NCBI GenBank assembly: GCA_965220965.1
Contig: CBDCRI010000001.1
Span: forward strand, 293,532-357,531
DNA length: 64,000 nt
Source: Candidatus Marinacidobacterium sp.
GTDB taxonomy: Bacteria; Acidobacteriota; Vicinamibacteria; Marinacidobacterales; Marinacidobacteraceae
Reading direction: 5' to 3'
The translations under genes were made by a program, and so were the position numbers. Below, one piece after another: positions 31,926 to 63,717 of this stretch. How positions within the stretch are numbered: the stretch's first letter is position 1; each line of letters starts with the position of its first letter. Below the pieces are notes generated by a model, which searched no databases, was not told the origin of the DNA, and was given only the letters and a program-made list of their open reading frames with translations.

Positions 31926-31928
31926 TCG

Positions 31929-44366: not shown

Positions 44367-44445
44367 AATCGAATCAAAAAGACGGCGTTTTTGATTCGAT
44401 TAGGGGGCTTAATCGCATCAAAAAACGCTATTATTTGATTCGATT
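44367..44445. promoter_or_regulatory. Two 35-bp palindromic operator-like sites (AATCGAATCAAAAA-N7-TTTTTGATTCGATT and AATCGCATCAAAAAAC..TTATTTGATTCGATT) upstream of the Fic gene.
   Basis: Near-perfect inverted repeats in an AT-rich island 20-100 bp upstream of the ATG at 44464. Confidence 0.6.
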
Positions 44446-44463
44446 AGCGGGAGAACGTCGATC

Positions 44464-45696: not shown

Positions 45697-45844
45697 CCGG
45701 CCGGCCGGCCCCCCTCGGGGGGCGCCCAACGCCGCGCCGGCGCGGGAAAGCGGCGGCATCCGGCGCAAGGGGCTCCCCGCCCGCCCTCGAACTGGGCCGG
45801 CTGCCGGCGGGGGCATGCCCGTCGGGGCCGGCCAAGGGCCCGGT

Positions 45845-45853
45845 TGCTAGAAT
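45845..45853 (+). promoter_or_regulatory. Extended -10-like motif TGCTAGAAT-CCC upstream of cassette gene P1. The same motif recurs at 46851, 48828, 50986, 58622, 59802, 62487, 40438 and 42945.
   Basis: Recurrent TGnTAnAAT followed by CC(C), 40-55 nt upstream of the ATG codons. Confidence 0.45.
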
Positions 45854-45897
45854 CCGTGCCCGCGGCCCGCCCTGGGCCGCCCGGAGAAGGGGGGAGC

Positions 45898-46812
45898 ATG
45901 GCGCAGCGCACCGTCAGATTGCGGCCGGATGCGGCCCGCGAGGCCATCCTCGCCCGGACCTGCCCGCCGAACGCCGTCGTGGCCGGCGACCTGTTCCTCA
46001 CCGGGGAGCCGTGGCTGACCCGGCTGCCCGAGGGCCTCAGGGTCGAGGGCCGGCTGGGGATCAGCGGCTGCCACCGCCTCGCGGGGCCCATCATCGGGCT
46101 GTCGGCGGACTCGCTGGAGATCTCCGACTGCGCCGCCCTGGTGGGCTTGATCGAGGACTCCGCGCAGGGCCTCCTCGTGCCCGGGGACCTGGTCCTGCAG
46201 GACTGCCCCGTGCTGGACCTCTTTCCCGAGGTGGCCGCCATTCGGGGCGACCTCCATGTCAGCAACTGCGGTCTGGGCTGGATGCAAATGGGCCATGGGG
46301 AGCCTTGGAAGCTCGCCGTCGGCGGCTCCGCGACGATCGAGGGGTGCGTCGGCCTCAAAAGCCTGCCGCTGCAAATGGCCGTCGGCGGCGACCTGCACAT
46401 CCTGGACTGCCCGCAGCTCGGCCGCAGCAGCTGGAGGCCGTCGCCGGACGTGTCCGTCGGCGCGGCCTGCCGCATCCAGCGCTGCCACGCCCTCCGGCGA
46501 TTGCCGTCCATCGCGTTCCGGGGGGAGGGCCACCTGCGCATCGCCGAATGCCACAGCCTCTCCGCCGTCTGGGAGGACGTGCGGCCGCGGGGGTCCCTGC
46601 ACCTCGATGACTGCCCGCTGCTGTTGCACCTGCCCGACGGGCTCGCCTTGAGCGGCAGCCTCCATGCGACCGATTGCCCCGCGCTGGAATGGCCGGACGG
46701 CCTTGACGTCCAGGGGGAGGTCAGGGCCTTGGGCACCACCCCGCGCCGGGTGCCGCCCTCGGCAGGCCCCGCCGAAGGGCGCGGCAAGGCGCCGGCCGGC
46801 CCGGCCCCCTGA
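45898..46812 (+). CDS. Cassette-family member P1: ~300-aa cysteine-containing LRR-like repeat protein.
   Basis: N-terminal .AREAIL..TCPP.AVV.G.L.L...P.L..LP.GL.VEG.L.I.GCHRL. Repeats of ~22 aa C(P)xLxxLPxxLxVGGxLxIxxC. C-terminal GTTPRR. Confidence 0.7.
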   Translation: MAQRTVRLRPDAAREAILARTCPPNAVVAGDLFLTGEPWLTRLPEGLRVEGRLGISGCHRLAGPIIGLSADSLEISDCAALVGLIEDSAQGLLVPGDLVLQDCPVLDLFPEVAAIRGDLHVSNCGLGWMQMGHGEPWKLAVGGSATIEGCVGLKSLPLQMAVGGDLHILDCPQLGRSSWRPSPDVSVGAACRIQRCHALRRLPSIAFRGEGHLRIAECHSLSAVWEDVRPRGSLHLDDCPLLLHLPDGLALSGSLHATDCPALEWPDGLDVQGEVRALGTTPRRVPPSAGPAEGRGKAPAGPAP

Positions 46813-46903
46813 GGGCCTGCGGCCCGGCGCCGCCCAGCCGGCCCCGCGGTTGCTAGAATCCCGCCGGGCCCCGCGCAGGGCGGGGCGGCGACGGGAGTGA
46901 GGC

Positions 46904-47800
46904 ATGGCGAACGGCACCGTCATCATGGCCCCGGAGGAGGCGAGCGAGGCGATCCTGGCCGGGACCTGCCCGGCCGGCGCCGTGGTGGCGGGCCACCTGA
47001 CGCTGCACGGCGAGCCCTGGCTGGCCGAGCTGCCCAAGGGCCTTTCGGTCGAGGGGCGGCTGCGCATCGCCGGCTGCCACCGCCTCAAGCGGCTGCCCGA
47101 AGGGCTGTCGGCCCTCGGCCTGGCCGTCGAGAACTGCTGCCTCCTCGAGGGGTTCGACCACGCGGCCTCGCTGCGGTTCGAGACGCCCGGCGACCTCTCC
47201 TTCAGCAACTGCCCTTCGCTGCGGCTGCTCCCGGTTGAGGCCGCCGCCGGGGGCGACCTGACCATCAAGGACTGCCAGCGGGCCTTCGGCCACTCGACGG
47301 GAGGGCCCGCGCTTGCGCCGCGGGCGCTCCAGGCGGGCGGCAGCGCGTTCCTCGCGGGCCTCCCCGGCCTGGTCGAGCTTCGCGGCCGCATCCGCGTCGG
47401 CGAGAGCCTGGAGATCGACGGGTGCCCGTTCCTGGCCCAGGTGGGCGGCGGCCCCGAGCGCATCCGCGTCGGCCGGGGCTGCCGGATCGCCCGCTGCCAC
47501 GCCCTCAGGACCGTGGCGGGCATCGAGTTCGCAGGGGACCGGGGGGAGCTGGCCATCCGCCACTGCACGGCGCTGGAGTCCATCGGCGACGACGTCCGCC
47601 CCTCGGGCAGCCTGGCGGTCATCGGCTGCCCCTCGCTCCCGCGGCTGCCGAGCGGCCTGGCCCTGGCCGGGAGCCTGTGGGCCAACAACTGCCCCGCCCT
47701 GCGCCTGCCCGACGACCTCGAGGTGCGGGGGAGGGTCTGGCAATGGGGCGTGGACATGCGCCGGGCGGCCGCCAAGGGCGGCCCCTCGCCCTCCCCCTGA
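46904..47800 (+). CDS. Cassette-family member P2.
   Basis: MAPEEASEAILAGTCPAGAVVAGHLTLHGEPWLAELPKGLSVEGRLRIAGCHRLKRLPEGLSA...GVDMRRAA. Confidence 0.7.
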   Translation: MANGTVIMAPEEASEAILAGTCPAGAVVAGHLTLHGEPWLAELPKGLSVEGRLRIAGCHRLKRLPEGLSALGLAVENCCLLEGFDHAASLRFETPGDLSFSNCPSLRLLPVEAAAGGDLTIKDCQRAFGHSTGGPALAPRALQAGGSAFLAGLPGLVELRGRIRVGESLEIDGCPFLAQVGGGPERIRVGRGCRIARCHALRTVAGIEFAGDRGELAIRHCTALESIGDDVRPSGSLAVIGCPSLPRLPSGLALAGSLWANNCPALRLPDDLEVRGRVWQWGVDMRRAAAKGGPSPSP

Positions 47801-47872
47801 AGCGCGCCCGGCCACGCGCTCGGCTGCCGGAATCGACGGACCCGCGCGCAACGCGGACCGGAAGGAGCGAAC

Positions 47873-48796
47873 ATGGCGAAGCGAACCGCCCGGCTGGCGC
47901 CGGCGCAGGCCCAAGAGGCCATCCTCAAGGGGGAGTGCCCGCCCGGCGCGGTGGTGGAGGGGGGCTTGGCTTTCGTCAGCGAGCCGGGGCTGGCCGAGCT
48001 GCCCAGGGACCTCACGGTGCTGGGGCCGCTGCAGGTCGACGGCTGCCACCGGCTCAAGCGGCTGCCCAAGGGGCTGTCGGCGACCGCCCTCAGCGTCCGC
48101 GAATGCGCCTCCCTCGAAGGCTTCGAGCCCGCCCCCGGAACGGCGTTCCAAGTGGACGGCGACCTGCTGTTCAGCAAGTGCCCGTCGCTGGCGCGCTTCC
48201 CGGAGGCCCTGGAGGTCGGGCGCGACCTGACCCTCAAGGACTGCCACCAAGCCTGGACCAACCCGATGGGGCTGCCCCTTTGGGTGCCGGAGCGGGTTCG
48301 GGTGGGCCGCGCCGCGGTCCTCGACGGCTGCGTCGGCCTCACCGAGCTGCCGGGCCGCATGGAGGTCGGCCTGGAGCTGCGGATCATCGGCTCCCCCTTC
48401 CTTGCCGAGATCAGGGCGGAGGAGGGTTTCGGGACGCTCACGGTCGGGACCGCCTGCCTCATCAAGCGGTGCCATGGCCTGCGCCGCGTGGCGAGCCTTT
48501 CGTTCGCGGGCGAAGGCGAGCTTGCGGTCATCGACTGCGACGCGCTGGAGGCCATCGGCGACGGCGTCCGGCCCCAAGGGCGGCTGGCGCTCATGGACTG
48601 CCCGTCGCTGGCGCGGCTGCCCAGGCGCCTCGACCTGAAGGGCAGCCTGGTGGCCGACAACTGCCCGTCGCTGGGGGCGCCGCCGGCGGGGATCCGGGCG
48701 CGGGAGGGGCTCTGGCCCTCGGGGACGACGCCGCGCTGGGCGGACGCCCCGGCGGCTGCGGCGCCGGTCGGACGCCCCACCCGCCAGGCCCCTTGA
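47873..48796 (+). CDS. Cassette-family member P3.
   Basis: Same architecture as P1; C-terminal GTTPRWADAP. Confidence 0.7.
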   Translation: MAKRTARLAPAQAQEAILKGECPPGAVVEGGLAFVSEPGLAELPRDLTVLGPLQVDGCHRLKRLPKGLSATALSVRECASLEGFEPAPGTAFQVDGDLLFSKCPSLARFPEALEVGRDLTLKDCHQAWTNPMGLPLWVPERVRVGRAAVLDGCVGLTELPGRMEVGLELRIIGSPFLAEIRAEEGFGTLTVGTACLIKRCHGLRRVASLSFAGEGELAVIDCDALEAIGDGVRPQGRLALMDCPSLARLPRRLDLKGSLVADNCPSLGAPPAGIRAREGLWPSGTTPRWADAPAAAAPVGRPTRQAP

Positions 48797-48897
48797 GCGG
48801 GCGCGGGGCGCCGTCCGGCGCCCGGTTGCTAGAATCCCTGCGCCGCCACCGCCCAGGCGACTGGGCCGGCCGCCCGCAAGCCAGCTGAGGGACGCCC

Positions 48898-49845
48898 ATG
48901 ACGCAACCCGACCCACACGCCAGCGCCGGCCCATTCCACCCCGATGGCTTCCGGGAGGATGCGGTCCGCACTGGCGCCATGATGTCTCCCGAGGAGGCGC
49001 ACGAAGCGATCCTGAAGGGGACCTGCCCCCCCGGCGTGTCGGTGCATGGCAGCCTGGCCTTCCTCAACGAGCCCTCGCTGGCCGAGCTGCCCCGCGGCCT
49101 CGCGGTCGAGGAAGGCCTCGACATCCTGGGCTGCCACCGGCTCAGGCGCCTGCCGGCCGGCCTTTCGGCCCGTTCGGTCTCGGTCAGCCACTGCGACGCC
49201 TTCGAGGGGTTCGACGTCCACGCCTTCGACCGCTTCTTCGTGCCGGGCCACCTCGTGCTGCTCGACTGCCCCTCCCTGACCGCCTGGCCGCGGGAGCTTT
49301 ACGTCGGGGGCCAGCTGCGGGTCGCGAGATGCCAGTGGGCCTGGGACAGGCCCGCGCTGCCAAGGGGGGCGGGGGCGCCGTTCAGGCTGTCGGTGGGCGG
49401 CCAAGCCGATCTCGAGGAATGCGCGGGCCTGCGCGAGCTGCCCCGGGAGGTCGAGGTGGGAACCTCGTTGACGCTCTCCCGGTGCCCGCGGATGACGGCC
49501 CTGCCCGGGGCTCGCGGCGGGCGCCTCGTCGTGGGGGACCTCTGCGTCGTCGAGCGCTGCCACGGCCTGCGGGAGCTGTCGCGCGTCAGCTTCCGCGGGG
49601 AGGGCAAGCTGCGGGTGCGCGACTGCGCCGCGCTGGAGGTCGTCGGCGACGGGGCGAGGCCGGGCGCGACCCTGGCGCTGGCCGACTGCCCGTCGCTGTC
49701 GCGGCTGCCGAGCCCCCTGCCCCCGTCCTGCCGCCTGGCGGTCCGCAACTGCCCCAAGCTTCAGGCGGACGGCGAAGCCAAGGCGGCGCAAGGCCATGCC
49801 CGCCAGGCCGGCGCTGGGCCCCGCGCCCCGTCGCCCGCGCCATGA
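48898..49845 (+). CDS. Cassette-family member P4 (alternative start at MMSPEE near 48976).
   Basis: MMSPEEAHEAILKGTCPPGVSVHGSLAFLNEPSLAELPRGLAVEEGLDILGCHRLRRLP. Confidence 0.65.
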   Translation: MTQPDPHASAGPFHPDGFREDAVRTGAMMSPEEAHEAILKGTCPPGVSVHGSLAFLNEPSLAELPRGLAVEEGLDILGCHRLRRLPAGLSARSVSVSHCDAFEGFDVHAFDRFFVPGHLVLLDCPSLTAWPRELYVGGQLRVARCQWAWDRPALPRGAGAPFRLSVGGQADLEECAGLRELPREVEVGTSLTLSRCPRMTALPGARGGRLVVGDLCVVERCHGLRELSRVSFRGEGKLRVRDCAALEVVGDGARPGATLALADCPSLSRLPSPLPPSCRLAVRNCPKLQADGEAKAAQGHARQAGAGPRAPSPAP

Positions 49846-49972
49846 CGCGCCGCCCCGCCGGCCCGCGCAAGCCACTCGCCAAGCCCGTCCGGCCCCGCCC
49901 CTTCGGCTGCGCTGCGGGCGCTGCCGCCGCCATCGCGCCGCGCCCGAGGGCCGGACGCGCCAGGGGGGCGGC

Positions 49973-50905: not shown

Positions 50906-51033
50906 GGCGCCGCCCGCCGAGCCGGCGGGCCATCCCGCGAAGCCGCGCGCAACGCCGCCCGCTCGGCCCCACCGCGGGCGCGGTTGCTAAAATCCCGCAA
51001 CGCTCAAACGCCAGTCCGAAAAAGGGGGAAGGC

Positions 51034-51963: not shown

Positions 51964-51997
51964 CCCGCCGCCCGCAAGGCCGCCCCGGGGAGGCAGC

Positions 51998-52918
51998 ATG
52001 GCCAAGGGAGCCATTCGAATGACCGGCGAGGAGGCGCGCGAGGCCATCCTCAAGGGGGAGTGCCCGCCCGGCACGACCGTCCGGGGCAGCCTGGCCTTCC
52101 GCCGGGAGCCGTGGCTCACCCAGCTGCCCCGAGGCCTGACCGTGGAGGGAACCCTGTCCATCGTCGAGTGCCACCAGATGCACTCGCTGCCGAGCAACCT
52201 AGCGGCGGAGGGGCTCACGATCTCCAACTGCGCCCAGATGCAAAGCCTGGGACGCGTCAACCGACCGCCCCTGCACCTCCCGGAGGGCCTGCTTCTGCAG
52301 GGCTGCCCCGCCTTGGCCGAGCTTCCCGACGACGTCGCCGTCGGGGGCGACCTGCACATCCAGGACTGCCCGTGGCTCTGGCCGGGGCCGCGCGTCGGGC
52401 GACCGCGCTCCGTGCATCTCATCGGGCCGCGGCGGCTGTCGGTGGAGGGATCCGCGACGCTGCGCGAGTGCGCGGGCCTCTACAGCCTGCCGGACCGCAT
52501 GGCGGTGGGCGGCGCGCTGACGATAGCCGACTGCCCTGGGCTCTCCGGCATCGGCGGCCCGGACGGCGAGGCCGGCCTCGCCGTCGGCGGCGCCTGCCTC
52601 ATCGAGCGCTGCCACGGCCTGCACGAGGTGAGCGGCATCGCCTTCGGAGGCGGCGGCCTGCTGCGCGTCGACGACTTCAGCGGGCTGGAGGCGCTCGGCG
52701 ACGGCGTGCGCCCGCCGCGCCGCCTGGAGGTGCGCGGCTGCCCGTCGCTGGTCCGGCTGCCGCGCCGCCTCGCGCTCGAGGGCGCCTTGGTGGCACACGA
52801 CTGCCCGTTGCTCGAGGCCCCCGACGGGGCCGTCGCGCGCGGCGGCGTCCGGGCAACCGGCAGCACCCCGCGCTGGGAGGCCGCGCCCGATCGGCGCGCG
52901 CCCTCCCCCTCGCCCTGA
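51998..52918 (+). CDS. Cassette-family member P7.
   Basis: MTGEEAREAILKGECPPGTTVRGSLAFRREPWLTQLPRGLTVEGTLSIVECHQMHSLP...GSTPRWEAAP. Confidence 0.7.
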   Translation: MAKGAIRMTGEEAREAILKGECPPGTTVRGSLAFRREPWLTQLPRGLTVEGTLSIVECHQMHSLPSNLAAEGLTISNCAQMQSLGRVNRPPLHLPEGLLLQGCPALAELPDDVAVGGDLHIQDCPWLWPGPRVGRPRSVHLIGPRRLSVEGSATLRECAGLYSLPDRMAVGGALTIADCPGLSGIGGPDGEAGLAVGGACLIERCHGLHEVSGIAFGGGGLLRVDDFSGLEALGDGVRPPRRLEVRGCPSLVRLPRRLALEGALVAHDCPLLEAPDGAVARGGVRATGSTPRWEAAPDRRAPSPSP

Positions 52919-52930
52919 GAGCGCACGGGG

Positions 52931-53980
52931 ATGCTGGGCGTGGACCTGTTCGCCGGCGCCGGGGGGCTGTCCGCGGGCGCCCGGGCGGCGGGCGTGCGCA
53001 TCGCCGTCGCGGTCGAGTCGGACCCGCGCGCCGCCGACGCCTACCGCCTCAACCACCCCGAGGCGGACCTGCGGGTCATGGACGTCAGGCGGCTGCCCGA
53101 CCCGGCGCCCATTGCCACCTCCCAGCCCACGGTCCTGCTCGGCGGGCCGCCGTGCCAGGCGTTCTCCTCCTCCAACCAGAGGTCCCGAAGCCTGGGCAAT
53201 CCGGCGAACCGCCTCTACGTAGAGATGCTGCGCGTGGCGCGGGCCATGCGGCCAACCCACGTCGTCATCGAGAACGTCCGGGGGTTCGTCGAGGCCCAAG
53301 GCGGGCTGTTCCTCAGCGACGCCCTGAAGCGGCTTCGCGAGCTCGGCTACCACGTCGCCCACGGCATGCTCGACGCCGCCGACTTCGGCGTGCCGCAGCA
53401 CCGGCGGCGCCTGTTCATCGTCGGCTCCCGGGGACGCCCGCCGAGGCTGCCCCGGCCCGTCGGCGGGCCGCGGACGACGGTGGCCGACGCGCTGCTCGAC
53501 CTGCCCGTGCTGGAAAACGGCGCCGCCCTGCCCCTGGCCCGCTACCGGCGGGCGCCCCACTCCGCCTACGCCCGGCGCCTGCGCGGGGACGGCGCCGCGT
53601 GCACCGGCCATCTCGTCACCCGCAACGCGCCCCACATCGTGGAGCGGTACCGGCACGTGCCGCCGGGCGGCAACTGGCGGGCGATCCCGGCCCGGCTCAT
53701 GGCGGGCTACGCGGACCGCACGCGCTGCCACGAGGGCCTCTACCGCCGGCTGCGCTGGGACGCGCCCTCGGTGGTGCTCAACAACTTCAGGAAGAACATG
53801 CTGATCCACCCCTGGGCGCAGCGCGGCCTGTCGGTGCGCGAGGCGGCGCGGCTGCAGTCGTTTCCCGACGCCCACGCCTTCGCCGGGAGCATCGGCTTCC
53901 AGCAGCAGCAGGTGGCCGACGCCGTGCCGCCGCTCATGGCGCGGGCGGTGCTGGAGAGCGTCCTGCAGGGCGCGGGCTAG
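52931..53980 (+). CDS. C5 cytosine-specific DNA methyltransferase (Dcm-like), embedded in the cassette array.
   Basis: DLFAGAGGLS (motif I), GGPPCQAFSSSN (motif IV), ENVRGF (motif VI), QHRRRLFIVG (motif VIII). It sits 13 bp after the P7 stop. Confidence 0.85.
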   Translation: MLGVDLFAGAGGLSAGARAAGVRIAVAVESDPRAADAYRLNHPEADLRVMDVRRLPDPAPIATSQPTVLLGGPPCQAFSSSNQRSRSLGNPANRLYVEMLRVARAMRPTHVVIENVRGFVEAQGGLFLSDALKRLRELGYHVAHGMLDAADFGVPQHRRRLFIVGSRGRPPRLPRPVGGPRTTVADALLDLPVLENGAALPLARYRRAPHSAYARRLRGDGAACTGHLVTRNAPHIVERYRHVPPGGNWRAIPARLMAGYADRTRCHEGLYRRLRWDAPSVVLNNFRKNMLIHPWAQRGLSVREAARLQSFPDAHAFAGSIGFQQQQVADAVPPLMARAVLESVLQGAG

Positions 53981-54042
53981 GGGCCGTCGGCGGAGGGCTT
54001 GGTTCAACGGCCGCAGCGCCGGCTGCCGGCAGGAGGGCGAAA

Positions 54043-54806
54043 ATGGCGACATCCGGGACCCGCATGACCCCGGACGAGGCCCGCGAGGCCATCCTCGGCG
54101 GCGCCTGCCCCGACGGCGCCCAGTCCGCGAGGCCGGCCCGATCCGCCTGCCCGCCGGCCTCACGGTGGAGGGCGGCCTGCACGCCAACGAGTGCCCGGGG
54201 CTCAGGCACCTGCCGCGGGGGCTGTCGGCGGCGTCGGTGGCCGTCGAGGCCTGCGCGGCCTTCGAGGGCTTCGATCCCGAGTTCGAGGGGGCCTTCCGCG
54301 TGCCCGGGAACGCCCACTTCCTCGCGTGCCACGCCCTGGCCCGGTTCCCGGAGGAGGTCGCGGTCGGGGGACACTTCGACCTCACGCGCTGCGCGCGCGC
54401 CTGGGCGGGGCCGTCCGGGACGCCGAGAAGGCTCACGGCGGGAGGCAGGGCGGTCCTCACCGGATGCGCGGGGCTCAGCGAGCTGCCGGAGGAGATGGCG
54501 GTCGGCCAGGCCCTGCTGCTGATCAAGTGCCCGAGCCTGCGCAGCGTGCCCCATGGCGAGGGGGCGGGCGCCCCCCGCGCGGGCGCCTACGCCGGCATCT
54601 TCCGCTGCGACGGCCTGGAGCGCGTTGACGGGATCTCGTTCGAGCCGGGCGGCGTCCTGGAGGTGGTGGGCTGCCGCAGGCTCAGGTCCATCGGCGACGG
54701 CGCGCGGCCGGAACGGCTGTCCGTGGAGGGCTGCCCGCTGCTGGAGCGGCTGCCGCAGCGGCCGGCCTCCCGCCCCGCCTCCCGCAAAGGCCCGCCGTTG
54801 CCCTGA
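54043..54806 (+). pseudogene. Frameshifted cassette-family member P8.
   Basis: The N-terminus MATSGTRMTPDEAREAILGGACPDGAQ runs in one frame. The LRR-like body (ECPGLRHLPRGLSAASVAVEACAAFEGF...CPLLERLP) lies in another frame from ~54165. The frame switch is near 54125. Confidence 0.6.
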
Positions 54807-55072
54807 TCACGCAACCGGGGGCACGGCCTCGACCGGGAGGGAGTCCGGCGAACGCCCAGGCCGCCGCTCGTTCCGGGCGGCCAATGCCGATTCATCGCCA
54901 GCCGTTCACAGCCCTCGGGCAAAGCCGCCCCAATCCCCGACCCGCGGGAATTCGGGGTGCCTGCCAACCCATTCGCCCCGCACCGCCAGGACCTGGAAGG
55001 GAAACCGGGTCCAGTGCTATGGTCCAAGCCGGCTTCAGGGATGCGCGCAGCGCAGCGAACCGAGACTCGAAC

Positions 55073-56419
55073 ATGCGCCTGTCCGTCCTCCTACACGATG
55101 AGCTTGCCGTCGAGCTGCAGGCCGATCCGCGGCAGCGGGCCGCCATCCTGACGCGGGGGGCCGCGATGCGGTGGCTCTCCGCCGCCTGGACGGGCGATGA
55201 GGGACTCAACCCCATGGTCAATTGGCTCGAGGCGCTCCTGCCGGAAAGCGGCAAGCTTGAGCGATGGCTGGGGCAGACGCGGGGGAGGCTGCTCGCAGGC
55301 GGCGTCGAGGACCGGCCCCACATTCCGGAAACGACGCTTTGGATGCATGCGGACGCGGAGTTTGCGGGCGCCGTGTCCCTCGTTCGGGACCAAGGCTCCC
55401 CCCGGAAGGCCCTGCCCATGGACTCCTCCGCCTATCGGAGGCTCGATGAGAAGGACGTTGGGCGGCTGCTTCTCGACGAGAACCAATTGGCCGGACGCGC
55501 GAAGGGCTCCCCCCGGGGCATTGAAGGGCGGGCGCGATCCTCGCTGTCCGGGATGCGTCCGAAGATCACCCTGACGGCCGTTGACGGCGATCCGGACCGG
55601 GGCTGGGCGCAAGGGGAGCCTGGGCAGCTGAACACTTGGATCGTCAAGCATGAGCACAGCCCGAACCTCCCCGGGGAGGCCGGCGTGGAGGCGGTTTGCC
55701 AAAGCGCGCTGGACCTTGCCGGGGTGCCGGCGGCCCGCACGCTGTCCCGGGTGATTGACGGCATGCAGTGCGTCCTGAGCGAGCGCAGCGACCGGGCCGT
55801 CAGGGACGGGGCGGTCGTGCCGGTCCACCAGGAGGACTATCGGCAGGCGGCGGGCAAGGGGATCGTGAAGTTTCGCGAGGCCGTCCAGCCGCGCAGCGAG
55901 TGGCCCTTTGCCTACCGGCTGCTGGACGGCGAGGCCGAGCGTGAGGCGCTGACCCGCTTCCTGGCGGGGTCGTGGCTGTTGGCGCACTGCGACCTGCACA
56001 GGGGCAACTTGGGCTTCACCATCACCCAACGGGGGGCGGGGCCGAAAAGGGCGTCCGTGGCGCCGGCGTACGACGTGTCGAGCGCCGTCGGCACGAAGCT
56101 GAGCGCAAGGCTTGAGTTCCCCATCGCCGCGCAGGGCGACCCCGCGAAGATCAGCGTCCGCCAATGGGCCGCGCACGCCAGGGAGTGCGGAATCGAGGAG
56201 GATGCCACGCTGGAGGCGGTTTCGAGCGTCGCGCGGGCGATGCCTGGCGCCCTCGCCCAAGCCATGGCCGACGCACGGGCGGGCCATGAGAACATCAGGC
56301 AGGATGCGGTCGATGCGCGGTGCGCGGCGGTGATGGGGCACGTCGTCGCCCGCGCCGACCGCTTCGAGCAGGACTTGGCACGGAGGATGAGGAGGGCCTT
56401 CGACGCGCCGGGGCCTTAG
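55073..56419 (+). CDS. HipA-family serine/threonine kinase toxin-like protein, with no adjacent HipB.
   Basis: GMRPKITL, HCDLHRGNLGF and APAYDVSS motifs; ~450 aa. Confidence 0.7.
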   Translation: MRLSVLLHDELAVELQADPRQRAAILTRGAAMRWLSAAWTGDEGLNPMVNWLEALLPESGKLERWLGQTRGRLLAGGVEDRPHIPETTLWMHADAEFAGAVSLVRDQGSPRKALPMDSSAYRRLDEKDVGRLLLDENQLAGRAKGSPRGIEGRARSSLSGMRPKITLTAVDGDPDRGWAQGEPGQLNTWIVKHEHSPNLPGEAGVEAVCQSALDLAGVPAARTLSRVIDGMQCVLSERSDRAVRDGAVVPVHQEDYRQAAGKGIVKFREAVQPRSEWPFAYRLLDGEAEREALTRFLAGSWLLAHCDLHRGNLGFTITQRGAGPKRASVAPAYDVSSAVGTKLSARLEFPIAAQGDPAKISVRQWAAHARECGIEEDATLEAVSSVARAMPGALAQAMADARAGHENIRQDAVDARCAAVMGHVVARADRFEQDLARRMRRAFDAPGP

Positions 56420-56665
56420 GCCGCGGGATTCCCAGCCCGCCCGAAGGTCGCCGGCGGCCAGGAGCGGAGGCCGGGGCGCCGCCGGTTCGGCATCAGGCCG
56501 CAAGGCGCCCCGGATTGCCCCAAGCCAAGGGCGCACGGGGAACCTGAAGGGCGAGCGGCGTGAACGGAAGGCGCCGGAGCCCGGCGGGCCGCCTTTCCCG
56601 AAGGACCGGCGTTGCTTTGATGGGGCAACGGGCGGCACGGCCCCCCACCCGCAGCGAAACGGCGA

Positions 56666-56974
56666 ATGCCCCATGGATTCACGCGCCTGACCACGGACGA
56701 GGCCTGGACGGCCATCCGGGCGGGCACCTGCCCCGACAACGCCTTCTTCGAGGGACGCCTGATCCTCGTCAGGCATGACGAAGCGACCGAGCCGCCCCGC
56801 AGCCTCGGGGCGGACGGGAAGCTCCGCATCATCAATTGCCGCCGCCTCCGGCTGCCGCCCCCGGGGCTGGCGGCCCACGCGCTCGGCGTCAAGGAATGCC
56901 CGTCGTCGGCGTTGCCGGTCGCGAGAGCAGGCGGAACATGCGTAGTGTGTTGCGAAGGCAGAAGCGTGATGTAA
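56666..56974 (+). pseudogene. Truncated cassette-family member P9 (102 aa, N-terminal module only).
   Basis: MPHGFTRLTTDEAWTAIRAGTCPDNAFFEGRLILVRHDEATEPPRSLGADGKLRIINCRRLRLPPPGLAAHALGVKECPS, then termination. Confidence 0.5.
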
Positions 56975-56981
56975 TCAGCGA

Positions 56982-57275
56982 GTGGAATTGGCTCACAAGC
57001 GGCAGGTGGCCGAGATGACGCGCAATCAGATGCTTAAGGCGTGGGCGCAACGCCCGCGAGTGGCTGGAAAGCCCCCCCGATCATGCGATGGGCAGCCGCC
57101 ATGCAGCAAGGCGGCACGGGCGGAGCGCCGGATTGCGGCGGGCGTTGAGTCAGCCGTTCAGTCAGCCCTGGACAGTTCCATTGACCTTCACCATGTCCGC
57201 GAGCGGGAGATCCAGCAGGCGGGCTTGAATCAGCCCTCGGAGTACGCGCTCGAAATGGCGGAGCGAACTCAGTAG
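56982..57275 (+). CDS. Small protein in a low-GC module; possible antitoxin.
   Basis: 97-aa ORF directly upstream of the PIN-like gene. Local GC is clearly lower than the flanks. Confidence 0.3.
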   Translation: MELAHKRQVAEMTRNQMLKAWAQRPRVAGKPPRSCDGQPPCSKAARAERRIAAGVESAVQSALDSSIDLHHVREREIQQAGLNQPSEYALEMAERTQ

Positions 57276-57282
57276 TTGGGCG

Positions 57283-58065
57283 ATGTCCGTCAAGCCGCTG
57301 CTCATTGCGTTCGACAGCAACATTCCAGCCCTGCCTTCAGTTCGGGCGTTCTGGGGAACGTTGTGCGAAGCGGTTGGGCAGCGAATGGCATTGACGCCAA
57401 CCGCCGCCTCTGAACTTCTTCGCCGAGTCAGGCTAGAAACCGAACGTGAATGGGACAGCCGCTTGCGGCTGCTGAAGGCTGATGGCGAAATCAGCTTGCG
57501 CCCCGGCGACATTCGAAGGCTGTCCACTGCGGCGGGCAATGCCGCAAGAGACATGCTGCGCCACGAAATGCGCAACTCCAACGGCATTTACGCAGCGGCG
57601 CACGAAGCCGGCCAAGCGGTGCTCGCTCTGGAAGAGGCGCTTTACGAATTGATGCCCGAGGACATCTTCGATCCAACCACCGACAACGGCATTCGAGACC
57701 GGAAGATCGTCATTGAGTCCCTCGCGCGCGGATTCAACGTCTTGGCCTCCAACAACACCCACAGCATTGACCACAATGGGCTAAAGGACTGGGTTGAAAC
57801 CGATGAGGCAAAGCGCTTGAAAATCCAATCCACCATACTGCGTCCCCAAGGCGCTGAACGAAAGCTGCGCAAGCACTATGGCAAGCCTGCGGATTGGACG
57901 GTTCGCGCCTTGGCGCGATCGTGCGTGACGGATCCCCACAACGCAAAGCGCGCGGTCAAGGAAATGGCCGACGCGTTGCAGCCGTTCGACGAGCGGGGCA
58001 TGGGCGAACTGCAAATGAGGATCAACAAAGTCCTGATGAACAAAAAAAACTGGACTCAGTGCTGA
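57283..58065 (+). CDS. PIN-like domain protein (putative toxin) in a low-GC module.
   Basis: N-terminal LLIAFDSNI resembles PIN motif I; 260 aa. The composition is atypical for the region. Confidence 0.35.
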   Translation: MSVKPLLIAFDSNIPALPSVRAFWGTLCEAVGQRMALTPTAASELLRRVRLETEREWDSRLRLLKADGEISLRPGDIRRLSTAAGNAARDMLRHEMRNSNGIYAAAHEAGQAVLALEEALYELMPEDIFDPTTDNGIRDRKIVIESLARGFNVLASNNTHSIDHNGLKDWVETDEAKRLKIQSTILRPQGAERKLRKHYGKPADWTVRALARSCVTDPHNAKRAVKEMADALQPFDERGMGELQMRINKVLMNKKNWTQC

Positions 58066-58652
58066 GCGCGGTTCGAACCCACGGCAACAGCATGGCAATG
58101 CGCACCAATGTCCTGATAGCGGAAAAGGCCACCAAGGAAGTGTCCAGACTATCAGGGGGCGACATCAGCCTCTAAATCGTCAGTGGCTGGCGGCGTGGAT
58201 CTTGTTTCGCATGTTGCGGGAGGGCGAAAGGGTTGGGCTTGTGCCGATGCCCCTTCCTGGTTCGGCAGCCGGCCGAACTCAACGTCGGGTTCGACCTCCG
58301 CATCCAGGGCCGCTCCCGCCTCTGGCAGTACGCCTTCGGCGCCCTAGGCGCGGTGCCAGAAAGCCACCGCGTCGGCGGCTCGGCGGAGCTGATCGGCAGC
58401 GACGGCCTTTCCGAGCGGCCGCAGCGCCTCCTGGAGGTCCGCTTCCGCCCCTTGCTGGCGCGCGTCCCGGACCGCCCGTCCCCGGAGGACGCGTTCCACT
58501 CCCATGACTGCCCCCTGCCTAGGGCGGACCCCTGGCTCAAGGCCGAAGCGGGAGGCAGGCAAGCGCGCGTGCGGGCGCGGCCTCACTCCAGCGCCTTGCC
58601 CGCGCCCAAGCGGCGCGCCGTTGCTTAAATCAAGCCGGACCGGGGCGCACCG

Positions 58653-58664
58653 CCCCCCCCCCCC
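58653..58664. repeat. Homopolymeric C12 tract in the 5' leader of cassette gene P10.
   Basis: TGCTTAAATCAAGCCGGACCGGGGCGCACCG-C12-ACGGAGAGGACGC-ATG. The tract sits between the promoter-like motif and the ribosome-binding site. Confidence 0.9.
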
Positions 58665-58677
58665 ACGGAGAGGACGC

Positions 58678-59784
58678 ATGGCGCAGCGCACCAACCGAAT
58701 GACCCCCGAGGAGGCCCGCGAGGCCATCGTTGCGGGCGCCTGCCCGGAGGGGGCGTCGGTCGACGGGCGGCTGCTGCTGGAGGACGCGGACTCGCTGACC
58801 GAGCTGCCGCGCGGCCTGCGGGTCGACGGCGAGCTTTGGATCCGCGGGTGCAACCGGCTGCGGCTGCTGCCCGCCGGGCTTTCCGCGCAGGCGCTGCGGG
58901 TGGAGGCCTGCTCCCTCATGGAGGGGTTCGCCCCGGACTTCGGCGGCGCCTTCGGCGCGCCGCGTTGGGTCCACTTCGAGAGCTGCCCATCGCTGCACAG
59001 CCTTCCCGACGCCCTGAGCGCGGGGGGCGACCTCTCGCTGGTCGGCTGCCATAGGCTCACGGCGCTGCCCCGAAGCCTGTCGGCGCGCTCGGTGCTGGTC
59101 GGCGACTGCGCCGCCTTGGAGGGGTTCCACGCCGACGCCAGCGCCTTCGAGGCCGCGGGGACCGTGAGGTTCCTGAACTGCCCCTCGCTGCACCGCTTCC
59201 CGGAAAGCCTGGCCGTCGGCCGCGACCTGCTGCTGATCGACTGCCCGCGCGCATGGGCGAGCCCCGCGGGGGAGCCCGGCGGCGCGCCGCGGCGGCTGTC
59301 CGTGGGCGGCACCGCCACCCTCGAGCGGTGCGCGGCGCTGTCGCGGCTCCCGGAGGACGCCGCCATCGGCGTGCGCCTCTACGTGGACCGGTGCCACCGC
59401 CTGGAGCGGCTGGGCGGGCTCGACGGGCCGCGCCCGCTACGCGTCGGCTTCGGCTGCAGCGTCGAGCGCTGCCAGGGGCTGCGGCGCATCGACCACATCG
59501 CGTTCAGGCGCTTTGGCTCGCTGGAGGTCGTCCACTGCCTGCGGGTCGAGGCCATCGGGGACGGCGTGAGGCCCCAGCGCAAGCTGCGCCTGGTGGGCTG
59601 CGGCGCGCTGGAGCGGCTGCCCGCCGCGCTCTCCCTCGACGGCGCCCTGGTCGCCCGCGACTGCCCCTCCCTGGCGGGGCCGCAGGGCGTTTCGGCCCCG
59701 ATCGTGGCGGCTGAGGGCACGACGCCGCGCTGGGAGGGCGCGGAGGCGGCGGCCGCCAAGGCGGACGCCGGCCCCTCCCCCTGA
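58678..59784 (+). CDS. Cassette-family member P10 (368 aa).
   Basis: MAQRTNRMTPEEAREAIVAGACPEGASVDGRLLLEDADSLTELPRGLRVDGELWIRGCNRLRLLP...GTTPRWEGAE. Confidence 0.7.
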   Translation: MAQRTNRMTPEEAREAIVAGACPEGASVDGRLLLEDADSLTELPRGLRVDGELWIRGCNRLRLLPAGLSAQALRVEACSLMEGFAPDFGGAFGAPRWVHFESCPSLHSLPDALSAGGDLSLVGCHRLTALPRSLSARSVLVGDCAALEGFHADASAFEAAGTVRFLNCPSLHRFPESLAVGRDLLLIDCPRAWASPAGEPGGAPRRLSVGGTATLERCAALSRLPEDAAIGVRLYVDRCHRLERLGGLDGPRPLRVGFGCSVERCQGLRRIDHIAFRRFGSLEVVHCLRVEAIGDGVRPQRKLRLVGCGALERLPAALSLDGALVARDCPSLAGPQGVSAPIVAAEGTTPRWEGAEAAAAKADAGPSP

Positions 59785-59839
59785 GCCGGCCCGGCCCGAT
59801 TTGCTCTAATGGGGGCATCGCATTGCCAAGGAAGGCGCC

Positions 59840-60550
59840 ATGGCGGGAGGGAGCCGCAGCATGTCCCCGGCACAGGCCCGGGCCGCGATCCTCGCGGGGG
59901 ACTGCCCGGACGGGGCGGTCGTCGAAGGGCCTCTCTGGCTGCTGCCGGGGGACGGCGGGGGCGTGCTGCCCGAGGGGCTGACCGTTGAGGGGGAGATGGT
60001 CCTCGATGGCTGGGACGGGATCAGGCACCTGCCCCCCGGGCTGTCCGCGCGCTCGCTCTGGATCCAGCGGTGCGCGGCGCTGGAGGGCTTCCATCCGGCC
60101 TTCGGGGGCGCCTTCCACGTGCCCGGGGACCTGCTCCTGATCGACTGCCCCGCCCTGCACGCCTTTCCCGCCGAGCTGAGCGTCGGCGGCGGCCTGCGCC
60201 TCGAACGCTGCCCGAGGGCCTGGTCGGGCGGGGCGGGCGCCGCCGGGGCGCCCCCCGCAAGGCTCAGGGTGGCGGGCGAGCTACGGCTGAAGAGCTGCGG
60301 GCGGCTGTCCGCGCTGCCCCCGGAGTTGGACGTCGGCGGCAGCCTGCGGATCACCGATTGCCCCGCGCTCAAGGACATCCGCCCGCGGCGCTGCGTGGGC
60401 CAGGTCCAAATCGAGAGCCGCGAGCCGGTGCGGGGCGTGGGAACGCTCTCCTTCAAGCCCTTGGGGGCGCTGCTGCACCCGCCCGCCGGCAGCGCCCTGC
60501 GGCGGAAGGCCCGACCCAATGGAGGGAAGCCCCATGGCCCAGGCCATTGA
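59840..60550 (+). CDS. Cassette-family member P11 (short variant, 236 aa, divergent C-terminus).
   Basis: MSPAQARAAILAGDCPDGAVVEGPLWLLP...GIRHLPPGLSARSLWIQRCAALEGF. Lacks the GTTPRW tail. Confidence 0.55.
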   Translation: MAGGSRSMSPAQARAAILAGDCPDGAVVEGPLWLLPGDGGGVLPEGLTVEGEMVLDGWDGIRHLPPGLSARSLWIQRCAALEGFHPAFGGAFHVPGDLLLIDCPALHAFPAELSVGGGLRLERCPRAWSGGAGAAGAPPARLRVAGELRLKSCGRLSALPPELDVGGSLRITDCPALKDIRPRRCVGQVQIESREPVRGVGTLSFKPLGALLHPPAGSALRRKARPNGGKPHGPGH

Positions 60551-61439
60551 ACTGACCGAGGCCGAGGCCCGCGAGGCCATACTGAAGGGGACGTGCCCGG
60601 AAGGCGCGGCGGTGGACGGGGGCCTCGCCTTCGAGCGGAAGGGCGCGTTGGTCGAGCTGCCCGAGGCGCTCAGGGTCCGCGGGACGCTGCGCATCAGCGG
60701 CTGCGACCGGATCAGGCGCCTGCCGGCCGGGCTGGACGCCGACGCCGTGCTGGTCGAGGAGTGCCCCGTTCTTGAGGGGACCGACCCCTCCAGGGGGGCG
60801 ACCCTGACCGTGAGGCGCGACCTCTCCTTCCTCAACTGCCCGTCCCTGGCGCGCTTCCCGGACCGGCTCAAGGTCGGGGGCAGCCTGTCCATGGCGAACT
60901 GCCCGCAGGCCTGGTCGCAGCCGGCCGGACGGCCAGGAGGCCCGCCCGAGGCCCTGCGCACGGGCGGCGACGTGACCCTGCACGCCTGCGCCGCCCTGCG
61001 GCACCTCCCGGACGCCCTTCGCGTCGGCGGCTCCCTCATCATCCTGGAGTGCCAGTCGCTGGAGGCCCTGCAAGACGGATACCCGGGCGGGCGCTGGCTC
61101 TTCGGCCATGCGGTCGTCATCAGGGGCTGCCACAACCTGCGCCGCGTCGGCGGGCTCAGGCACGAGAGCGCCGGCGAGCTTCAGGTCGAGCACTGCGCCG
61201 CCTTGGAGGAGATCGGCTCGGACGTCGGCCCGCTGCGCGTCCTCGGCCTGCGGAACTGCCCGTCGCTGCAGCGCCTGCCGGACAATCTGCCGGACGACGG
61301 CTGGCTCTCGGCCCGCGATTGCCCGTCGCTCCGGCCGCCGACGGGGTTGGCGGTTCGGGCCGCCTTCAAGCCGTCGGGCACCACGCCGCGCTGGACGGCG
61401 GGCGGCCCCGCGAAGCCGGCACGCCAGCCGGCCCCGTGA
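60534..61439 (+). CDS. Cassette-family member P12.
   Basis: MAQAIELTEAEAREAILKGTCPEGAAVDGGLAFERKGALVELPEALRVRGTLRISGCDRIRRLP...GTTPRWTAGG. Confidence 0.7.
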   Translation: MAQAIELTEAEAREAILKGTCPEGAAVDGGLAFERKGALVELPEALRVRGTLRISGCDRIRRLPAGLDADAVLVEECPVLEGTDPSRGATLTVRRDLSFLNCPSLARFPDRLKVGGSLSMANCPQAWSQPAGRPGGPPEALRTGGDVTLHACAALRHLPDALRVGGSLIILECQSLEALQDGYPGGRWLFGHAVVIRGCHNLRRVGGLRHESAGELQVEHCAALEEIGSDVGPLRVLGLRNCPSLQRLPDNLPDDGWLSARDCPSLRPPTGLAVRAAFKPSGTTPRWTAGGPAKPARQPAP

Positions 61440-61493
61440 CGGCGGCGAGGCCCGATCGGCAAGGCGCCCCGCCGGAAACCGCAACCCAGGGAG

Positions 61494-62408
61494 ATGAAGC
61501 GCATGGAGACGGCGATCGAACTGACGCGGGGGGTGCGCGAGGCCATCCTGAGGGGGGCGTGCCCGCAGGGCGCGGCCGTGGCCGGCGACCTCGTGCTCGA
61601 GGGCGAGGCCGCATTGACGGAGCTGCCGAGGGCGCTCACGGTCCATGGGACGCTGCGCATCGCCGGCTGCCACCGGCTCAGGCGCCTGCCTGTCGGCCTG
61701 GCGGCGGACAGCATCCACATCGAGAACTGCGCCGTCCTTGAGGGGGTGGCCCCAGCCACCGGGGCGGAACTGCGCGTGCGGCGGGACCTGACGTTCAGCC
61801 GATGCCCCTCCCTTGCGCGCTTCCCGGACCAGATCACGGTGGGCGGCAGCCTGTCCATCGCGGACTGCCCGCAGGCGTGGGCGCAGCCGAACGGGCAACC
61901 CGGAGGGCCGCCCTACGGCCTCAAGGCGGGCGGGGACGTGTCCCTGCAACGCTGCGCGGCCCTGCGGCACCTGCCGACGCGCATGCTCGTCGGCGGCTCC
62001 CTCAACATCGCCGAGTGCCACTCGCTGAGCAGCGTTGGCGAGGCATGGCTCGGCGCCGCGCCCATGCCCGAGGTCGGCGCCGTCTGGATCACGAGCTGCC
62101 ACGGCCTGCGTCGCGTCGGCGGGCTGGCGTTTGCGCAGGACGGGGAGCTTGACGTCGAGGACTGCGTCGCCCTGGAGGCCGTGGCGGACGACGTGGGGCC
62201 CCTGCACACCCTCGCCCTCAAGGGCTGCCCGTCGCTCAAGCGCCTGCCCCGCGGGCTGCCGCCCGACGGCTGGCTCTCGGCCCGCGACTGCCCGCTCCTC
62301 GAGCCGCCGCCGGAGCCTGCGGTCCGGGCCGCCTTGGAGACGTCGGGCACCACGCCGCGCTGGGCGCCGGCCAGCGCCGGGCGCCGGCCCCGGCCACCCT
62401 CCCCCTGA
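61494..62408 (+). CDS. Cassette-family member P13.
   Basis: METAIELTRGVREAILRGACPQGAAVAGDLVLEGEAALTELPRALTVHGTLRIAGCHRLRRLP...GTTPRWAPAS. Confidence 0.7.
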   Translation: MKRMETAIELTRGVREAILRGACPQGAAVAGDLVLEGEAALTELPRALTVHGTLRIAGCHRLRRLPVGLAADSIHIENCAVLEGVAPATGAELRVRRDLTFSRCPSLARFPDQITVGGSLSIADCPQAWAQPNGQPGGPPYGLKAGGDVSLQRCAALRHLPTRMLVGGSLNIAECHSLSSVGEAWLGAAPMPEVGAVWITSCHGLRRVGGLAFAQDGELDVEDCVALEAVADDVGPLHTLALKGCPSLKRLPRGLPPDGWLSARDCPLLEPPPEPAVRAALETSGTTPRWAPASAGRRPRPPSP

Positions 62409-62537
62409 GACCCTCGGCGAAGCCCGCGCCCCCGGCCGGACGCCGACGGGGACCGGACCTGCGGGGGGACGCCCGGCGCGCCCGTTTGCTTTAATGCCCG
62501 CAACGTCCCCGGACCCCATGCCCGAAGGAGCGGCCGC

Positions 62538-62976
62538 CATGGCCAGCGCCACGACCCTGACGACGCCAGAGGCGGCGCGCGACGCCATCCAGAGCGGCGC
62601 CTGCCCGGAGGGCGCCGTGGCCGACGGCGACCACCGGTTCGCCGAGGCGCCGGGCCCTACCGAGCTGCCCAGGGGGCTGGCGGTTCGCGGCGAGATGCTG
62701 GCCTGGGGCTGCCATCGGTTCAGGCGGCTGCCGCAGGGGCTGTCCGCCGAATCGCCCGTCATTGACGACTGCGCCCTCTTCGAGGGGATCGCGGCGGACT
62801 TCGGGGGCGCCGTCGAGGCGGGCGGCGACACATGCTTCCGCAACTGCGGGTCGCTGGCCCGCTTCCCGACGCCGATGTCCGTCGGCGCGCGCTTCTCCCT
62901 GGTCCTGCGCCCAGTGGCCTGGGGCGGCCCCAACGCGCCGGCCGCAAGGCGCGCCGGCGGTGCGGCCTCCGCATGA
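62538..62976 (+). pseudogene. Truncated cassette-family member P14 (146 aa).
   Basis: MASATTLTTPEAARDAIQSGACPEGAVADG...WGCHRFRRLPQGLSAESPVIDDCALFEGI, then premature termination. Confidence 0.5.
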
Positions 62977-63539: not shown

Positions 63540-63717
63540 AGGCGTCCGCCCCGTGAGACCCAGCACATGGAAGCACGCTCCAGTCGCCCTTCGCCTCCCG
63601 GCCGGCATGGAAGCAGGCAATGAAGGCCCCCTGCCCCCGGCACCGCACTCCGCCAAGGGCAAGGGGAGCCCCCCCCACCCAGCGCCGCCGTGACGGGGCC
63701 TGAACGGAGCCAGAGAA

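Follow-up and report, generated by a model that had tools for sequence, protein, structure and literature searches.

At least 25 diverged leucine-rich-repeat genes in tandem in a defence island of Candidatus Marinacidobacterium sp.: a candidate repertoire of cytoplasmic binding proteins

Why should a bacterium carry at least 25 diverged copies of one gene, head to tail, in the middle of a defence island? The question is raised by a 64,000-nucleotide stretch of contig CBDCRI010000001.1 from Candidatus Marinacidobacterium sp. (hereafter the window, numbered from its first letter), in which an earlier note, made from the sequence alone, had described a tandem array of paralogous, cysteine-containing proteins resembling leucine-rich repeats (LRRs) and had proposed a diversified sensor, decoy or effector repertoire. 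On the basis of a structure model and of the paralogue alignment, the array proteins are predicted to be cysteine-ladder LRR solenoids, and a clear pattern of constraint indicates that the intact copies are functional. As to their role, we favour, tentatively and at rather less than even confidence, a birth-and-death repertoire of cytoplasmic stoichiometric binders that would neutralize or trap variable incoming proteins, either as a polyimmunity-like locus or as an inhibitor or decoy set.

Fourteen consecutive LRR paralogues lie on the + strand between 45.8 and 63.0 kb of the window, as had been described; going by the listed open reading frames (ORFs) and a paralogue-derived profile, 10 are intact (P1–P7, P10, P12 and P13; 298–368 residues) and four are decayed (Table 1). 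The frameshift in P8, the truncation of P9 and P14, and the shortening of P11 were all recognized earlier; the two pieces of P9, which is split by a 1.2-kb low-GC insert, are linked here for the first time. The array does not stop at the window end. Via one paralogue (P0013), the profile search led to the ENA contig ctg109675, which is 100% identical to window positions 55700–64000 (8.3 kb) and continues for a further 13.2 kb; it contributes 11 additional copies, Q1–Q11, beginning ~370 nt beyond base 64000 (extended coordinates 64373–77247; L010 501–13375). Ten of these are long-form genes (390–448 residues where complete), each with about six repeats duplicated internally, and the remaining one is a fragment of 48 codons. 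Window and contig together give at least 25 head-to-tail genes over at least 31 kb, both figures being lower bounds, as ctg109675 terminates within the last Q copy; five of the 25 copies are visibly dead. An assembly artefact or a recent duplication can be dismissed: no two copies are more than 88% identical in nucleotide sequence, and the stretch from P13 to Q2 is reproduced at 99.95–100% identity by two other assemblies, one of them a short-read Logan assembly, such that three independent assemblies are concordant.

The paralogue alignment bears out the shared design of an N-terminal capping module, cysteine-containing repeats of ~21 residues and a GTTPRW/PSP tail. The repeat consensus, which recurs in 64 distant relatives, is CxxLxxLPxxLxVxGxLxLxx, and there are ~11 units in the short form represented by P7; the family members as a whole are LRR-only proteins of 300–450 residues with ~11–17 cysteine-ladder repeats. 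An AlphaFold2 model of P7, computed from an alignment of 11 paralogues, is a confidently predicted LRR solenoid (pLDDT 88.9; pTM 0.86): a strand and a helix cap the N-terminus, each repeat contributes two short strands, and disorder is confined to one loop and the final 20 residues. The top Foldseek matches to this model are the LRRs of plant NLR proteins (NRG1C, RPP1 and Roq1), the thyroid- and follicle-stimulating hormone receptors, and XopL; FlrP (PDB code: 8z5u, chain 0), YopM and InlJ are likewise among its nearest structures, and further matches are SspH1, IpaH and SlrP. Searched against the PDB, the paralogue profile finds the LRRs of RPP1 and Roq1 with E-values of 2e-9 and 6e-7, respectively. 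By contrast with this agreement at the level of fold, none of the curated models in Pfam, NCBIfam, PADLOC and PHROGs gives a significant match to the LRR family, the sub-threshold hits being LRR_13 of Pfam (E 0.04) and XopL of NCBIfam, which scores 28 bits where 500 are required; the family was thus rightly said to be unrecognized.

Equally informative is what these proteins lack. No Pfam NEL domain was found in the five window copies scanned (P2, P3, P7, P12 and P13), and scans with Pfam, NCBIfam and PADLOC revealed neither an NTPase of the NB-ARC, NACHT or STAND type nor an effector domain in, between or beside the copies; the epithet 'NLR-like' is accordingly unsupported. Neither the alignment nor the P7 model gives any sign of a signal peptide, lipobox or anchor: the N-termini open directly with the conserved, folded cap, in line with the cytoplasmic location first suggested. 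Moreover, there are no LPXTG or GW modules in the tails, which end in PSP.

The copies are old and diverged duplicates: those in the window share 36–48% protein identity with P7 and 53–73% nucleotide identity with one another. Their GC content at third codon positions (GC3) is 0.92–0.97, which marks the reading frames as genuine and as belonging to a genome of ~75% GC. Nearest relatives tend to be neighbours (P12–P13, P5–P6, P2–P3 and Q3–Q6), and the Q3–Q6 group comprises young single-gene tandem duplicates with 82–88% nucleotide identity. Across Q4, Q5, Q6, Q7f and Q10, a block of 55 nt spanning the promoter and 5′ untranslated region is 98–100% identical, and the first 144 nt of coding sequence are 73–93% identical; the N-terminal segment of Q5 is nearer to those of Q10 and Q7f than to those of Q4 and Q6, and such mosaicism of the N-terminal coding segments indicates gene conversion. 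The family has thus grown by tandem duplication of single genes, by duplication of repeats within genes and by gene conversion, and it undergoes birth-and-death decay through frameshift, truncation and insertion.

Could the array simply be expanding and decaying neutrally, with no current function? Its five dead copies would fit, as would whole-gene ratios of non-synonymous to synonymous substitution (dN/dS; Nei–Gojobori method, NG86) near 1, namely, 0.7–1.05 for the closer window pairs and 0.8–1.27 within Q3–Q6 (dS 0.12–0.22). However, the whole-gene ratios conceal two classes of site. When conserved and variable positions are defined in one clade and tested in the other, NG86 dN/dS is 0.35–0.69 for the conserved class and 1.1–1.85 for the variable class (1.6–1.85 in most pairs) at equal pS; the exposed positions change about three times faster than the scaffold positions at equal synonymous divergence. 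As a GC3 of 93–97% inflates dN/dS, a control was run that counts G↔C changes only, and it returned ratios of 0.30 for the conserved sites (p 1e-10) and 1.18 for the variable sites (p 0.58). Purifying selection on the scaffold third of the positions is therefore clear, and it follows that the intact copies encode functional proteins. This largely refutes neutral expansion, which we consider very unlikely; also against it are the 19 or more ORFs of 300–450 codons that remain open despite 40–60% protein divergence, the conservation of the 5′ regions, and the retention of the architecture at 62–64% GC and, more distantly, at 48–52% GC. The exposed third of the positions, alternating residues of the β-strands, changes at the neutral rate or marginally faster; diversifying selection there is plausible, though unproven. 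The dN/dS comparison that the earlier note had called for thus establishes constraint on the scaffold and stops short of positive selection at the variable sites; the idea of a diversified repertoire fits both classes of site.

A second feature of the array, the promoter-like motif that had been reported ahead of most copies, is confirmed and extends into the Q genes. The motif, TTGCTNNAAT, reads TG-n-TAnAAT, resembling an extended −10 element; it is also similar to GCTANAWC, the housekeeping −10 element of alphaproteobacteria. The window contains 11 occurrences versus 0.44 expected, and seven of the 11 precede an array gene by 30–65 nt, in each case on the + strand. Across the 25 copies, 14 have the exact motif, four have a degenerate version and seven have none; the last are mostly close behind the preceding gene and could, therefore, be co-transcribed. 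A simple scan found no canonical −35/−10 pairs and no intrinsic terminators between copies. The majority of copies would, on this prediction, have their own sigma-70-type extended −10 element and Shine–Dalgarno sequence.

Individual promoters, if such they are, also bear on the notion of a phase- or antigen-variable surface family, or of an integron-like cassette array, which would account for many diverged same-strand copies and for the signs of gene conversion. A predicted promoter on most copies, rather than a single expression site, speaks against it, as does the fact that the proteins carry no signal peptide, lipobox or anchor and are not exposed at the cell surface. General scans for ORFs, repeats and domains brought to notice no recombinase gene, attC-like repeat or simple-sequence tract, and neither an invertase nor any silent-cassette logic was seen. 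This explanation, which the earlier note had entertained, we regard as scarcely credible.

Table 1. Array genes, associated promoter-like motifs and embedded or adjoining features, in window coordinates
Feature	Position	Strand	Description
Fic protein	44464-45696	+	DUF4172 (PF13776 E 1e-21) and PF02661 (E 2e-15); PADLOC SoFic E 1e-34; directly upstream of the array
P1 motif TTGCTAGAAT	45844-45853	+	Extended −10-like, 45 nt ahead of the P1 start
P1	45898-46812	+	Intact, 304 aa; profile match E 2e-122 over positions 1-302
P2 motif	46850-46859	+	Exact-motif scan
P2	46904-47800	+	Intact, 298 aa
P3	47873-48796	+	Intact, 307 aa; motif upstream degenerate
P4 motif	48826-48835	+	Exact-motif scan
P4	48898-49845	+	Intact, 315 aa counted from ATG 48898; family-type N-terminus starts near 48976
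P5	49973-50905	+	Intact, 310 aa; without motif
P6 motif TTGCTAAAAT	50984-50993	+	Exact-motif scan
P6	51034-51963	+	Intact, 309 aa
P7	51998-52918	+	Intact, 306 aa; copy used for the structure model
Orphan C5 cytosine DNA methyltransferase (Dcm)	52931-53980	+	PF00145 E 2.9e-53; PADLOC MTase_II E 4e-96; 13 nt past the P7 stop
P8	54043-54806	+	Pseudogene; ~9-codon deletion and frameshift near 54121-54126; 3′ end gone, profile stops at 252
HipA-like Ser/Thr kinase	55073-56419	+	PF07804 (HipA_C) E 1.3e-19; no adjoining HipB; ORF call opens at 54884
P9 5′ fragment	56666-56974	+	About the first 100 codons; profile positions 3-79
Low-GC insert	56975-58175	+	GC 0.54-0.66; ORFs 56982-57275 and 57283-58065; splits P9
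P9 3′ remnant	58176-58625	+	Decayed; profile positions 96-163 and 233-297
P10 motif	58621-58630	+	Exact-motif scan
P10	58678-59784	+	Intact, 368 aa; about three repeats duplicated internally
P11 motif	59801-59810	+	Exact-motif scan
P11	59840-60550	+	3′-truncated, 236 aa; profile positions 1-217, last repeats gone; overlaps the P12 start
P12	60534-61439	+	Intact, 301 aa; without motif
P13	61503-62408	+	Intact, 301 aa; nearest copy P12 (73% nt identity)
P14 motif	62486-62495	+	Exact-motif scan
P14	62539-62976	+	Truncated, 145 aa; profile positions 1-141
Spacer between array halves	62832-64000	+	Two unannotated ORFs: 62832-63539, and 63718 to past the window end

The family is narrowly distributed. 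A HMMER scan of 1.84 billion representative proteins gave 7,844 matches at E ≤1e-3, among which full-length proteins of the same architecture are encoded solely on the window's own 363-kb contig and on two scaffolds, those of P0017 and P0020, of a single further metagenome. Scans for the N-terminal cap motif drew a blank in the GTDB species representatives and the JGI metagenomes, and a word-index protein search with P7 retrieved P7 alone. Among 72,556 plasmids, LRR relatives are confined to two Acetobacter megaplasmids (471 and 526 kb), where proteins ~25% identical to ours, all annotated as hypothetical, are encoded in 15–16 places per plasmid, including a tandem triplet; they retain the cap, the repeat type and a C-terminal S-P ending. 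No backbone similarity between the window and the Acetobacter plasmids was found. The other cargo of both megaplasmids is unusual, with genes for gyrase A and B, PAPS-reductase-family proteins, dUTPase, a shufflon PilV, DpdA and a protein annotated as 'exocyst complex component EXO70'. A phage origin of the LRR family is unsupported, there being no tblastn match in 50,697 phage records and no locus in IMG/VR. Searches of the literature on DUF6745, and on LRRs in combination with a defence island and HipA, yielded no matching account.

The more distant relatives are long multidomain proteins, and they bring in a different reading of the array. In a scan of 64 of them, a NEL E3-ligase domain turned up in 25, DUF6745 in 10, and DnaJ, PcfJ or FokI-recognition domains in a few; a Rhabdochlamydia protein is among the nearest relatives outside the genome, and one relative of 1391 residues, whose source bacterium has a gene for a TLC ATP/ADP translocase, bears the cap motif three times. 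Taken with the fold matches to YopM, SspH1, IpaH, SlrP and XopL, this kinship with LRR-NEL proteins and with giant LRR proteins of intracellular bacteria would suit LRR-only effectors of the YopM or GALA kind, exported by a route other than Sec, most plausibly by type IV secretion via the basic disordered tail, into amoebae, insects or plants, with each copy directed at a different host protein. The absence of a signal peptide agrees with such export, and the tail itself is suggestive: short, conserved, disordered and rich in proline and arginine, it has a net positive charge in 20 of 21 intact C-termini (19 from the array together with P0017 and P0020), and nearly all array copies whose C-terminus is intact end in (A/G)PSP or PSPSP (e.g. 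window positions 52900–52918). The corresponding ending is SPSPG in relatives at 62–64% GC, and SPTP or SLSP in the Acetobacter relatives at ~50% GC. A terminal S-P within a disordered tail suggests a short linear motif, for example, a secretion signal, a degron or a phosphosite. Furthermore, the tandem triplet of Acetobacter persici (L005; plasmid pAC1084_1) lies 5 kb from a gene for a type IV secretion coupling protein. Nevertheless, no secretion system was found in 77 kb (window plus extension), a folded N-terminal cap makes a type III secretion signal unlikely, the neighbours are phage- and plasmid-conflict genes, and a GC content of 75% together with large defence islands suggests a free-living organism; the tail is also less telling than it appears, as unconstrained sequence at 75% GC likewise encodes stretches rich in arginine and proline. 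Translocated effectors are, in our estimation, the main rival reading, possible but less likely than not.

The genes in and beside the array suggest yet another role. The earlier note had embedded toxin and methylase genes in it: Pfam confirms the Fic protein, the Dcm methyltransferase and the HipA-like kinase, whereas the 'PIN-like' label of the low-GC module finds weak support. The model of its larger ORF (57283–58065; 260 residues; AlphaFold2 pLDDT 92) matches VapC4, Nmd4 and PcrIIC1 in Foldseek at E-values of 0.015–0.2, weakly indicating a PIN-like fold, and no sequence model, including those of Pfam, matches it; there are ~33 unannotated homologues of ~298 residues, relative to which the window copy seems to be ~40 residues shorter at its C-terminus. 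Directly upstream of the Fic start codon, two AT-rich palindromes of ~36 bp (window positions 44367–44447; AATCGAATCAAAAA...TTTTTGATTCGATT) look like a double operator for autoregulation.

LRR–Fic fusions (AvrAC) and LRR–kinase fusions occur in nature. The array proteins might, by analogy, act in trans as sensor or adaptor modules for the Fic protein, the HipA-like kinase or a defence effector, either recruiting substrates or holding the enzyme inactive until a phage protein binds. The Fic gene is directly upstream on the same strand, and there is a Fic gene near the Acetobacter pasteurianus copy; moreover, an orthologous HipA-like kinase, again without HipB (42% identity; E 5e-97), adjoins the LRR gene of one metagenome locus (L003). 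These associations do not generalize: four other loci with HipA homologues (45–54% identity) have no LRR gene, which rules out HipA–LRR as a general two-gene module, and the window and Acetobacter Fic proteins are unrelated beyond their active-site motif, which rules out a conserved Fic–LRR pair. In addition, P8 and P9, the copies that flank hipA, are both dead; 25 adaptors for one or two enzymes would be unparsimonious; and no PADLOC model fits. We judge this arrangement improbable. The claim that the toxins are embedded as parts of the system is likewise unsupported, given the four loci and a low-GC module that is an insertion by which P9 was destroyed.

The remainder of the window is mobile and defence cargo, comprising, besides SoFic, Dcm and HipA, SNF2 and DpdF-like helicases, AbiE, RlaP with a kinase, and CRISPR-Cas. 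A protein of 1735 residues (window positions 3696–8903) fuses a DEAD/RecQ-like helicase (best PADLOC match DpdF, E 3e-110) to a UvrD/GajB-like helicase, with the SNF2 helicase upstream of it on the opposite strand; a RecQ-annotated gene on Cereibacter plasmids is similar to this fusion (74% nucleotide identity). The AbiEi/AbiEii pair (8884–10673) is 61–67% identical to a pair in L003, and the RlaP nucleotidyltransferase and AAA_33/zeta-toxin-like kinase (16887–19049, − strand) share, respectively, 79% and 59% protein identity with a pair in a second metagenome locus (L001 6661–8669). With the HipA-like kinase added, the islands of the window, L001 and L003 draw on a common pool of cargo. A type I-D-like CRISPR-Cas locus (22179–33830; Cas6, a large unannotated subunit, Csc2, Cas3 and Cas1) has 55–65% GC against a background of 70–76%, and its array (32358–33830) consists of ~23 repeats of GTTCCCAATCCCCATGAGGGGTAATGAG, a repeat whose only match is the chromosome of a gammaproteobacterial metagenome-assembled genome (OZ251545.1; 62% GC), where it is present in identical form 26 times; the module, therefore, looks horizontally acquired, and the match is uninformative about the taxonomy of its host. 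A second, orphan CRISPR-like array (37090–37420) contains five to six copies, partly degenerate, of the type I-E-like GCCCCGCCTGCGCGGGGATGGACCC at a spacing of 61 nt, with no cas genes beside it. The A. pasteurianus copy (L016; plasmid pAP22518-1) is flanked by I-F CRISPR-Cas, a methyltransferase, Fic, AbiEii and dpdA; indeed, every LRR locus examined is set amid toxin–antitoxin, CRISPR or restriction genes.

We favour a repertoire of cytoplasmic binders because the proteins lack enzymatic domains and signal peptides and begin with a folded cap, because a conserved scaffold is joined in them to exposed strands that vary, and because their neighbours are conflict genes. Each copy would be a stoichiometric binder with its own target specificity, and an arms race would maintain the array as a repertoire; most probably, the binders would neutralize or trap variable proteins that enter from competitors or mobile elements, the locus being then a homogeneous 'polyimmunity' locus of the Imm-LRR type, or an equivalent inhibitor or decoy set. 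The array would travel in the same mobile gene pool as the adjacent toxin–antitoxin and defence modules. While the fold, the dynamics of amplification and decay, and the pattern of constraint come from the model and the sequences themselves, we infer from them that the proteins bind at all, what they bind and in which direction the conflict runs.

Several observations weigh against such a repertoire, and it is because no cognate toxin was found that our confidence in it stays limited. Polymorphic toxins, Rhs, CdiA and secretion genes were not seen within the 77 kb or next to any relative, the loci covered for polymorphic toxins being the window with its extension, L001, L003, L005, L006 and L016. 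Toxin genes are said never to break up published polyimmunity loci (PMC3482391), and this array holds HipA and a PIN-like gene, although both look like later insertions; these and Dcm are insertions of the toxin–antitoxin type rather than polymorphic toxin cassettes. Imm-LRR has been reported in heterogeneous loci only (PMC3482391). The nearest non-self relatives that combine LRR and N-terminal cap are fused to NEL or come from bacteria with ATP/ADP translocases, which points to effectors directed at eukaryotes; the variable-site ratio of 1.18 (p 0.58) fits relaxed constraint just as well; and genomic context is weak evidence, as defence islands also gather unrelated cargo. A role resembling polymorphic-toxin immunity, as put forward in the earlier note, is nonetheless plausible and has a published precedent (PMC3482391).

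A bolder proposal, which we hold to be unlikely but worth stating, is that the locus is a stock of stand-alone LRR receptors or inhibitors, at least 25 in number and diversified by duplication of genes and of repeats and by gene conversion, each recognizing a different invading protein (from a phage, from a plasmid or an injected toxin), with no NTPase attached; this would be a prokaryotic recognition bank of the repertoire type, following the same logic as plant R-gene clusters and lamprey VLR cassettes. The LRR solenoid is the standard evolvable recognition scaffold of eukaryotic immunity, whereas in bacteria LRRs have mainly been met with in secreted virulence factors or as one domain within a larger protein. 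The array would be an exceptionally clean natural case in which to study how bacteria vary the specificity of protein recognition. Should the targets be phage or plasmid proteins, or injected toxins, bacterial immunity, or immunity to toxins, would gain a layer based on a repertoire; if they are eukaryotic, a large new effector family would be present in Acetobacter megaplasmids and in the host of the window. Under either reading, the family merits a name and a Pfam or NCBIfam model.

How, then, does the array compare with systems already described? LRR proteins and LRR multigene families are familiar, and this is not a new kind of molecule. Both Imm-LRR and homogeneous polyimmunity loci have been described for polymorphic toxin systems, in which the LRR is a listed immunity scaffold (PMC3482391). 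Homogeneous polyimmunity loci, like the array, consist of tandem, diverged, paralogous cytoplasmic binders without an adjoining toxin cassette, and have been proposed to cover many incoming toxins (PMC3482391); the array differs in being larger (at least 25 copies), in having a promoter-like motif of its own on most copies and in the insertion of genes of the toxin–antitoxin type. Imm-LRR is, moreover, reported only beside toxins of type V secretion systems (PMC3482391), and no such partner was found for the array. In sequence, the closest relatives of the LRR module and its cap are the LRR-NEL effectors of the IpaH, SspH and SlrP type and the LRR expansions of the Chlamydiae, with which the same cysteine repeat of ~21 residues is shared; the array proteins, however, lack NEL or any other enzymatic domain, show no obvious secretion signal and have no secretion system in their vicinity, and they reside in a defence island of high GC content. 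Internalins, including InlJ with its cysteine-ladder LRR, have signal peptides and wall anchors, unlike the array proteins; YopM has a type III secretion signal, and neither YopM nor the internalins form tandem arrays of 25 genes. FlrP, to which the P7 model is also similar, is an LRR protein of the polar flagellar motor of Vibrio, periplasmic, 199 residues long and with a Sec signal (bioRxiv 10.64898/2025.12.04.692373), whereas the array proteins have no signal peptide and are massively amplified. The LRRs of the plant TNL proteins RPP1 and Roq1 are of the same LxLxxCxxLxxLP repeat type, and R-gene clusters likewise evolve as birth-and-death tandem clusters with variable exposed β-strand residues; the TIR and NB-ARC domains of the TNL proteins are missing from the array proteins, which are bacterial stand-alone LRRs, and the likeness is probably one of scaffold only. 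It is in combination that its features had no counterpart among the described cases we could find: a stand-alone cytoplasmic LRR protein, at least 25 tandem copies of its gene, mostly with a promoter-like motif, birth-and-death evolution with gene conversion, and residence in a defence island.

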